A stretch of 64,000 bases of DNA from Escherichia coli. GTDB taxonomy: Bacteria; Pseudomonadota; Gammaproteobacteria; Enterobacterales; Enterobacteriaceae. The DNA is taken from the NCBI RefSeq assembly GCF_048403405.1, contig NZ_CP183129.1; one strand, written 5' to 3'. The position numbers and the translations under genes are program-made. The notes beneath the pieces were generated by a model. That model worked only from the letters and a program-made list of their open reading frames with translations. It ran no database searches and had not been told where the DNA came from. Positions 58,567 through 59,478 of the stretch are shown one piece after another (the first letter of the stretch is position 1; every line of letters begins with the position of its first letter).

Positions 58567-59478
58567 TCATACTGGTAACGCTAGTTGCTTTTTTTTAAAC
58601 GCCTCAATGGTCGATTTATATTTCTCGCAAATCTTTTCTTCGGTAATATCACTATCTGCGGCCAGATTCGCACTTACTATCGCATCCACTTGTTCGGCTA
58701 ATTCGACTTGTTGGCAACCTGCATTAACCAGAAAATTATAAATAAGAGAGTAATCTTCATCCTTCAAAAAAACAGAGGAACCATTACGAAAACGTTCATC
58801 CCCTCCATAGATTTTAAGCGCAAAGCCCAAAGATTCTATGACTATGGCAAAATTATCATCAATTATTTTTTCGTAAATATACCATCCATCGCATTCTTTA
58901 ATTCCACCTCCTGGAATTTGGAGGTCAAATTTACCCCGTTTTAATTTGCTTACTATATCCTCCAATAAGGCATAACCTAAAGACACGTCACCAATCGCCT
59001 GGCGAATATAACCTTTAATCCTTTCCGGTATGTCAGACTGTTTTTTCTGCAGAATATCCCGGGCATACAATCTTCTGTTTTGTTCTAACGGAAACTCGCG
59101 GTTTTTGAAATCCATGAATGAGTTATACTCATTTATTGTTATGGGAATTTCTTCGTATTCAAACCCACTGCCTCGCAATGTCATTATATATTTGGCACCG
59201 TTATCTTTAATGCTGAAACTGATAAGAAACTTATCCATGGCGTGAACATTTTCATTTTTTGATGAAAGCACCTGATAACTACTTTTATCAATCTGAGTTG
59301 CGCAACGAAAGAACTCCCGCAAAGTTAACAGGCTATCATAATTCGAAATCCAATCTTTTTTCTTAAATGCATGCTGGATATTGTTAAAAAAATTGTTTGA
59401 ATGTGTTTTTGTATGCGATGATTTTACGAATAACTCCACCGCACCAATAAAATTATTGTGTCTGATCCTGGGTAACAT
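58567..59478 (-). CDS. ytfI: AT-rich protein of unknown function
   Basis: 303-aa uninterrupted ORF in a markedly AT-rich segment between ytfJ and cysQ; no recognisable motif. Confidence 0.7.
   Translation of the reverse strand: MLPRIRHNNFIGAVELFVKSSHTKTHSNNFFNNIQHAFKKKDWISNYDSLLTLREFFRCATQIDKSSYQVLSSKNENVHAMDKFLISFSIKDNGAKYIMTLRGSGFEYEEIPITINEYNSFMDFKNREFPLEQNRRLYARDILQKKQSDIPERIKGYIRQAIGDVSLGYALLEDIVSKLKRGKFDLQIPGGGIKECDGWYIYEKIIDDNFAIVIESLGFALKIYGGDERFRNGSSVFLKDEDYSLIYNFLVNAGCQQVELAEQVDAIVSANLAADSDITEEKICEKYKSTIEAFKKKQLALPV

Follow-up and report, generated by a model that had tools for sequence, protein, structure and literature searches.

The ytfI gene of Escherichia coli: an AT-rich islet with the marks of an old, single insertion between ytfJ and cysQ

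The ytfI Locus

The gene ytfI is located on the minus strand at positions 58567-59478 of a stretch of 64,000 nucleotides of Escherichia coli chromosomal DNA (contig NZ_CP183129.1), called the window in the following. A reading made from the letters alone, before any database was searched (the sequence-only reading), had described it as an open reading frame (ORF) of 303 codons set between ytfJ and cysQ, and coordinates, length and neighbours all agreed with this description. The ORF starts with ATG, and AAGG, a Shine-Dalgarno-like (SD) motif, is found 8 nucleotides 5' of it. The gene order in this part of the window is ytfJ (plus strand, 57924-58478), ytfI (minus strand), cysQ (minus strand, 59691-60431) and cpdB (plus strand, 60612-62564). 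On the minus strand ytfI comes after cysQ, downstream of it, and it is convergent with ytfJ; this is the position of an orthologue of K-12 YtfI.

The 1,221 bp surrounding the gene were 100% identical to E. coli strain 4621, where RefSeq labels the locus "ytfI: protein YtfI", and 96.8% identical to K-12 MG1655; for the coding sequence the DNA identity to MG1655 was 96.7%. The K-12 counterpart is ytfI (b4215, "protein YtfI" in RefSeq, WP_000937655), and the protein matched the 312-residue cluster representative with 94% identity and 100% query coverage, which identifies it as the orthologue of K-12 YtfI. Both alleles share the place between cysQ and ytfJ, the orientation and the lack of an assigned function, but they differ by about 15 amino acids and by nine additional C-terminal residues in K-12. 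YtfI has 312 residues in K-12 and O157:H7 as compared to 303 here, where the leucine codon TTA is replaced by the stop codon TGA at 58567-58569 and the last nine residues are dropped. The 303-residue allele was also observed in strains AR_0015 and 20Ec-P-124, under the RefSeq name "hypothetical protein". The gene itself is not new: ytfI is annotated but uncharacterised, and the literature reports it as a K-12-specific insertion bound by H-NS.

The ORF is the sole long one of a 1,212-bp AT-rich segment. The stop-free run extends over 306 codons, and the probability of 303 stop-free codons calculated from base composition is about 2e-9. When the 1,212-bp segment was shuffled 5,000 times, the longest such run had a mean of 77 codons and a maximum of 192. 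The observed run exceeds that of every shuffle, and the frame is not a chance one; ytfI is a real protein-coding gene.

Empty and Occupied Sites

The segment carrying ytfI was present in 1,604-1,622 of the 5,426 complete E. coli genomes (about 30%), and the flanks in 5,420; approximately 3,800 genomes (about 70%) showed an empty site. From ytfJ to cysQ, the span measured 1,288 bp in every non-carrier sampled, as compared to 2,508 bp in carriers. In the empty allele, ytfJ has 185 codons, the final 11 bp of which are shared with the end of cysQ, read from the opposite strand. Salmonella enterica, E. fergusonii, E. marmotae and E. coli IAI39 all have this 11-bp overlap of ytfJ and cysQ in identical form, and YtfJ has 185 amino acids in the outgroups and also across the Enterobacteriaceae. 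Since the outgroups have the same overlap and the same YtfJ length, the empty allele is the ancestral one and the 1.2-kb segment an insertion. The absence of the segment from the orthologous site in related taxa is what would be observed for an acquired islet. The features of the occupied site are as follows.

58463-58478, plus strand: left junction, where the 3' end of ytfJ is rewritten to QKLLK and a stop (184 amino acids), the ancestral end being HKLINK and a stop (185 amino acids)
58479-58566, no strand: spacer between ytfJ and ytfI, absent from empty-site genomes
58509-58539, in the ytfJ-ytfI spacer: hairpin with a 10-bp perfect stem; AAAAUUAUUUUG then follows on the minus strand
58567-59478, minus strand: ytfI coding sequence, 303 amino acids, a soluble 34.9-kDa protein without known family
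59479-59642, minus strand: ytfI upstream spacer, 164 bp, 23.8% guanine plus cytosine (GC)
59643-59692, minus strand: stem-loop with 21-nucleotide arms, starting at the cysQ stop codon (inverted repeat I1)
59691-59701, no strand: right junction, read directly, with the cysQ stop region TTAGTAAATAG (ancestral form TTAATAAATAG)

At the left junction, identity to the empty-site allele was approximately 99% up to position 58462 and fell thereafter to 5-6 matches per 10 bases. When five occupied and five empty E. coli haplotypes were compared, fixed differences began at nucleotide 540 of ytfJ; in cysQ the sole fixed difference was at nucleotide 4 from the stop end. The insertion parted the two stop regions and changed the ytfJ end from HKLINK to QKLLK. 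The 11 bp of the right junction correspond to the stretch common to ytfJ and cysQ in the empty allele. The motif AAATA(A/G) is present at both ends of the insert, at 58473-58478 and 59696-59701, and this junction repeat is limited to 5-6 bp. No transposase or integrase gene, no inverted repeat at the two ends of the insert and no clear target-site duplication were found, and the insert does not belong to the mobile elements by these signatures.

Two hairpins lie inside the insert. The one in the ytfJ-ytfI spacer (inverted repeat I15) has the arms TTCCCCTATC and GATAGGGGAA, which are 100% complementary, and its RNA fold on the minus strand reached -19.1 kcal/mol (z -2.2). It is likely the terminator of ytfI, and it may be shared with ytfJ as a terminator. 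The stem-loop next to cysQ was the more stable in folding (-21.4 kcal/mol, z -5.55; none of 200 shuffled sequences reached this stability) and was absent from empty-site alleles, so that it belongs to the inserted DNA. It is most likely a replacement terminator of cysQ, not promoter DNA. The sequence-only reading had taken all of 59479-59690 as the upstream region of ytfI; its AT-richness stood (27.4% GC), but the cysQ-proximal part, 59643-59692, is the hairpin that likely terminates cysQ. The remaining 164 bp are presumed to hold the ytfI promoter and are a probable region of H-NS binding or nucleation. A single sigma-70-like match of consensus level was visible there (TTGATA-18-GATATT with TG, 59549-59520). 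Promoter-like hexamers were not enriched, with 6 matches as compared to 4.8 expected in shuffled sequence, and because they are as frequent in shuffles no promoter can be assigned from sequence alone. An Rfam scan in and around the insert gave no match inside it.

Base Composition

The 1,212-bp insert has a GC content of 34.9%, as compared to 50.7% for the 64-kb window, a value clearly under that of the host, as in xenogeneically silenced islets. The ytfI coding sequence is at 36.3% GC, and at 34.9% for third codon positions (GC3); the neighbouring genes are at about 50-55% GC, and GC3 is 55-63% in ytfL, ytfJ, cysQ and cpdB. The upstream spacer, 59479-59690, drops to 23.8% GC once the cysQ-proximal hairpin is set aside, and the downstream spacer, 58479-58566, is at 38.6%. 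The picture of a very AT-rich gene with AT-rich flanks on both sides, from which a foreign origin had been proposed, was therefore confirmed in coding sequence and spacers alike, with GC and GC3 far under those of the neighbours. That origin gains support from the empty orthologous sites, the low GC and the lack of any relative outside Escherichia.

Only 1.7% of the 1,212-bp windows within the 64 kb were equally AT-rich, the remainder being located at 16-21 kb. The most AT-rich part of the window contains a yjgL-like ORF of 555 amino acids (20118-21785, minus strand; 32% GC, GC3 29%) without NCBIfam match. A further AT-rich stretch, at 17-18 kb (36.5% GC), holds an ORF of 407 amino acids (16540-17763, minus strand) with the look of a multi-pass membrane protein. 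The yjgL-like ORF resembles ytfI in being AT-rich, in having no NCBIfam family and in having been flagged as likely foreign by the sequence-only reading, but the two proteins showed no sequence similarity. Kinship of YtfI to yjgL was rejected, the best BLASTP match having E = 5.2.

Age of the Insertion and Presence/Absence Polymorphism

Junctions and ytfJ end (QKLLK and a stop) were common to all carriers. The carriers included two divergent lineages, filed as E. coli in the databases, which hold ytfI at the same locus. In the first, YtfI had 78% amino-acid identity to the protein of the window, and the flanking genes were 95-97% identical. In the second, the identities were 69% for YtfI and about 89-90% for the flanks; this lineage is as distant from E. 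coli as E. marmotae is, and is clearly distinct from E. marmotae. For the most distant pair, synonymous divergence (dS) was 0.67 in ytfI, 0.64 in cysQ, 0.57 in ytfJ and 0.55 in ytfL. Because the dS of ytfI matches that of the flanks, ytfI has diverged together with them since a single early acquisition. The comparison points to one insertion, old enough to predate the split from a divergent Escherichia lineage of species level.

The five occupied and five empty haplotypes shared flanking polymorphisms, and fixed differences were confined to about 20 bases at each junction. This confinement indicates that both alleles are old and were moved between backgrounds by homologous recombination. The presence or absence of ytfI is an old polymorphism inside E. 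coli.

Selection on ytfI

The ratio of nonsynonymous divergence (dN) to dS in pairwise comparisons was 0.22-0.37 for ytfI, between alleles diverged to a dS of about 0.7, and 0.01-0.09 for four neighbouring genes; the dN of ytfI was 15-25 times that of the neighbours. The constraint was unevenly distributed. The ratio (omega) was about 0.16 in codons 1-150 and 0.23-0.57 in codons 151-300, with a peak of about 0.7 at codons 151-195. The length of the C-terminal tail also varied, with proteins of 303, 306, 307, 312 and 319 amino acids. This is the profile of relaxed purifying selection, with a conserved N-terminal half and a variable C-terminal half.

In some lineages a T-run near codon 31 had lost 1 bp, and their copies are annotated "frameshifted". 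One such allele group (L023 and L017; E. coli ESY002 and MRSN346355) was about 95.3% identical to the window; among 30 carriers taken at even intervals along the ranking, about 3 belonged to it. An N-truncated cluster contained 729 member sequences, and it reflects the codon-31 frameshift or similar lesions. The gene is dispensable and sometimes lost, but selectively kept where it is intact.

Homology and Structure Searches

When 5.8 billion clustered proteins were searched with a word index, only 18 clusters matched, and every one of them came from E. coli or Shigella. An exhaustive phmmer search of 1.84 billion representatives gave only fragments of the same family and one repeat-driven artefact. 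The latter, P0034, a repeat-rich surface protein of 1,100 amino acids, reached E = 7.5e-6 by the summing of six weak "KDxDYxLxY..NAG" matches, and was rejected. Residues 214-261 of YtfI do resemble its repeat, "KDxDYxLxYxxNxNAG"; this sole match outside the family was judged a coincidence at motif level. When one genome per species was searched, for 100,044 species, ytfI was found only in the divergent Escherichia lineage and on a contig of a Collinsella metagenome-assembled genome (MAG). This 1,501-bp contig (L008), in the MAG that serves as the GTDB representative of a Collinsella species, carries a ytfI 94% identical to the present one, and its presence in the bin is almost certainly due to contamination by E. 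coli. No ytfI match was obtained by tblastn against 50,697 phage records. Against the plasmid collection PLSDB, the matches were only mislabelled chromosomes or replicons of chromosome size: NZ_CP141089.1 and NZ_CP134663.1 (4.9 Mb, bearing ytfI) are evidently chromosomes filed as plasmids, and two 655-kb records with ytfI are chromosome-derived replicons. The distribution across these collections indicates that ytfI is restricted to Escherichia.

Profile searches agreed with the statement of the sequence-only reading that no motif is recognisable, no family of Pfam, NCBIfam or PADLOC being matched above threshold. Pfam gave no match to this allele even at E<=10, and a scan of six alleles at E<=0.001 was equally negative. 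NCBIfam, PADLOC and PHROG gave sub-threshold matches only, to Csx26, Cas6b and phrog_3250, respectively. These fell within residues 47-152, were weaker in divergent alleles and involved families that are AT-rich or rich in Asn, Lys and Ile, and they were read as composition-driven. An identity with Cas6 or the RAMP proteins was rejected, the Cas6b match spanning just positions 84-124 of a model of 240, as was an identity with Csx26 (13 bits as compared to a cut-off of 50). A double ferredoxin fold was also set aside: the predicted order of secondary structures differs, in a low-confidence model. The best match in a profile sequence search of the PDB was to nitrogenase, with an E of 0.9. Two truncated YtfI entries of UniProt in AFDB50, A0A377DE36 and A0A3A6TYV3, bear the name galectin, which looks like an automatic false positive; no Pfam galectin domain was found at E<=10, and no sequence relative in the PDB supported the name. 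An internal duplication between the two beta-rich modules was rejected (hhalign E = 0.34).

YtfI is hydrophilic and has a mass of 34.9 kDa, an isoelectric point of 6.55 and a grand average of hydropathy of -0.36. No membrane segment was detected, the maximum 19-residue Kyte-Doolittle score being 1.28, as had been stated from the sequence. AlphaFold2 gave a predicted local distance difference test score (pLDDT) of 49.7 for the full length, with a 13-row alignment, and of 49.1 for residues 145-303. Both models agreed, at low confidence, on a mixed alpha/beta secondary structure, in the predicted order of three N-terminal helices, a three-strand meander, helices, a five-strand sheet and C-terminal helices. 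The template modelling (TM) score to the AFDB model of YtfI was just about 0.33, and neither model is trustworthy for this reason. The only significant match of Foldseek in the PDB, AFDB50 and BFVD was YtfI itself, so that structure prediction, like the sequence searches, led to no characterised family.

H-NS Binding

Higashi et al. (2016) reported by chromatin affinity precipitation and sequencing (ChAP-seq) that ytfI is a K-12-specific inserted segment bound by H-NS (PMC4720273, S10 Fig). In K-12 the binding extends from ytfI to cpdB, cysQ, ytfJ and ytfK, and it is absent in SE11 and SE15, two strains without ytfI (PMC4720273). The same work showed an elevated dN for H-NS-bound genes (PMC4720273), with which the elevated dN of ytfI measured here is in agreement. 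The density of TpA steps was 86 per kb as compared to 46 per kb. The sequence-only reading had held that the AT-rich upstream region is H-NS-silenced; binding is indeed published for K-12, but silencing itself was not found in the searchable literature. Because H-NS binds the locus in K-12, we infer that ytfI is largely silent under laboratory conditions.

The islet has much in common with the acquired "specific segments" bound by H-NS, for which ytfI served as the illustration (PMC4720273): it is AT-rich, it is a strain-specific insertion, H-NS spreads from it and its dN is elevated. It differs from the typical segments in consisting of one gene and 1.2 kb, in having no mobility genes and in being old. 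It is further distinguished by being shared with another Escherichia lineage and by forming a polymorphism of two alleles at one fixed site.

A Different Insert in E. albertii

In E. albertii, the ytfJ/cysQ junction (L010:3556-5059) was occupied by a different insert of 1,504 bp, with 32.7% GC. It carries a gene on the plus strand (L010:3792-4949) for a pentapeptide-repeat protein of 385 amino acids, with weak similarity to PipB, PipB2 and SopA, effectors of the type III secretion system (T3SS). The two inserts share the insertion point, are similar in size and AT-richness, and in both ytfJ is cut to 184 amino acids with a new C-terminus. They differ in that the sequences are unrelated, the genes are on opposite strands and the E. 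albertii protein has a recognisable domain, the pentapeptide repeat. From this comparison, the ytfJ/cysQ junction would seem to be a place where AT-rich single genes land repeatedly.

A Model for the Islet and the Possible Role of YtfI

We propose that an early Escherichia ancestor received, on a single occasion, a 1.2-kb AT-rich islet with ytfI as its sole gene, and that the islet landed in the 11 bp where the convergent core genes ytfJ and cysQ overlap at their stop regions. With it would have come its own AT-rich upstream region, the hairpin that now ends cysQ and the hairpin between ytfI and ytfJ. In K-12, H-NS coats the islet and spreads onto the neighbours, and the gene would be expressed in particular conditions only. 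The product is predicted to be soluble and cytoplasmic, of about 35 kDa and of alpha/beta type, without detectable relative, motif or confident fold. The ORF has stayed intact and under purifying selection since the split from the divergent Escherichia lineage, with most of the change in the C-terminal half. The gene is dispensable, as shown by the 30% or so of carriers, the 70% or so of genomes with the ancestral empty allele and the frameshifts in some carriers, and homologous recombination has moved the occupied and empty alleles between genetic backgrounds. Taken as a whole, a single old insertion, coated by H-NS and holding an accessory gene under selection, is probably the correct explanation of the locus. 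The findings that would have spoken otherwise, a clear homology to a housekeeping family or a universal conservation with host-like composition, were not encountered.

The literature provides no mechanism for ytfI, which appears in high-throughput lists only. These comprise an ASKA overexpression clone surviving 3 mM NaOCl, a Keio mutant of low boric-acid sensitivity, multi-stress expression, a chip experiment with lactoferricin B and a disputed sigma-32 peak in chromatin immunoprecipitation (ChIP). The evolutionary traits of ytfI, which changes fast, has one variable half, is present in some strains and not in others, has been inactivated repeatedly and is AT-rich, lead us to a tentative guess: the role of ytfI may be conditional, niche-specific or of a conflict type, involving phages or mobile DNA, competitors or host interaction, rather than housekeeping. 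The conserved N-terminal half could be the working core and the fast-evolving C-terminal half a surface of specificity or interaction, an assignment made with low confidence. A more daring form of the same idea, which we regard as rather improbable, is that YtfI founds an undescribed family, a stand-alone conflict module, for example of abortive infection or directed against mobile DNA, with an N-terminal core and a C-terminal specificity half, kept through the history of E. coli as a balanced polymorphism at a fixed landing site, the stop-codon overlap of ytfJ and cysQ, where E. albertii would have taken up another AT-rich cargo independently.

Several observations weigh against this interpretation. 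Confidence in the conflict or niche role is low, the evidence for it being the evolutionary pattern. No window of ytfI had a dN/dS above 1, so an arms race is not demonstrated, and relaxed constraint by itself could explain the elevated dN. The gene is not in a defence island; it occupies one chromosomal site with no wider horizontal spread, which is unusual for defence genes. In PADLOC-DB v2 the best match, Cas6b, was not significant (E of 2.6e-4 to 6e-3, 14-19 bits, over 41 residues, in five alleles). On the side of H-NS, its high-affinity motif was not enriched in the insert (2 matches as compared to 1.4 expected), and the searchable literature yielded no report on de-repression of ytfI without H-NS or on its expression in hns mutants.

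Evolutionary debris is the opposite proposal: a silenced foreign ORF without current function, drifting to loss and intact for lack of time. The absence of ytfI from about 70% of E. coli, the frameshifted or N-truncated copies in some lineages, the variable C-terminal length, the binding by H-NS and the weakness of phenotypes, seen in high-throughput work only, all accord with it. We nevertheless judge it unlikely. A neutral frame of 303 codons in DNA of 35% GC should gain stops fast (0.064 per random codon), but intact ORFs persist across a dS of about 0.67, with dN/dS of 0.22-0.37, and of 0.16 in the N-terminal half. An origin de novo from AT-rich non-coding DNA in the insert, instead of the import of a ready gene, is the least probable proposal. 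It would suit the lack of a homologue anywhere searched and the low AlphaFold confidence (pLDDT 49.7 and 49.1), but the latter may also reflect the shallow alignment of 6-13 close sequences. A frame of 300 codons is very unlikely to open in DNA of 35% GC, the full-length frame is already present in the most divergent lineage, and the insert has the punctuation of a gene, with hairpin terminators on both sides and an SD motif.

The remaining proposals give ytfI a precise task. It could be a novel single-gene defence against phages or mobile elements, silenced by H-NS until triggered and maintained as a balanced polymorphism. Its accessory status (about 30%), the age and free recombination of both alleles, the fast evolution, the variable C-terminal half, the AT-richness, the repeated inactivation and the orphan nature of the protein would all fit, but there is no significant PADLOC match, the 41 residues matched to Cas6b being most simply compositional. 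Pfam found no nuclease, nucleoside triphosphatase (NTPase), TIR or SIR2 motif, no defence genes adjoin, and the gene is confined to one locus in one genus. We would put such a system at rather long odds. Effectors are often housed in single-gene islets that are AT-rich and bound by H-NS, and ytfI might also encode a secreted effector or host-interaction factor, for example a relic T3SS substrate orphaned in K-12 by the decay of the secretion system. The similarity of the E. albertii protein at the same junction to effectors of the PipB, PipB2 and SopA type, weak as it is, and the lack of an acidic residue among the first 14 residues of YtfI are in line with this idea. It is very unlikely all the same: no effector family of NCBIfam or Pfam matched YtfI, which on this count is not one of their members, and purifying selection persists in K-12-type lineages. 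K-12 has no functional T3SS.

For ytfI, the present analysis adds to the published description the ancestral state, the exact junctions, the age of the insertion, the divergence in step with the flanks and the selection profile, as well as the population frequency, the shuffling of alleles by recombination and the unrelated cargo at the junction in E. albertii. The K-12 gene is selected and Escherichia-specific, not annotation noise, and deserves functional testing. Natural strains with and without ytfI exist in every kind of genetic background, which eases comparison by knock-in and knock-out. The islet is also a compact example of a foreign gene set between overlapping convergent core genes, giving its neighbours new terminators and a new C-terminus, with a long tenure under H-NS. 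The second cargo in E. albertii suggests that overlapping ends of convergent genes can be recurrent landing sites.

On the other side of cysQ, the Rfam scan gave a full-length match to the small RNA family ES239 (RF02756) at 60498-60620 on the minus strand, with 157 bits as compared to a gathering score of 62. It lies in the intergenic region between cysQ and cpdB and extends over the first bases of cpdB as the ORF was called.

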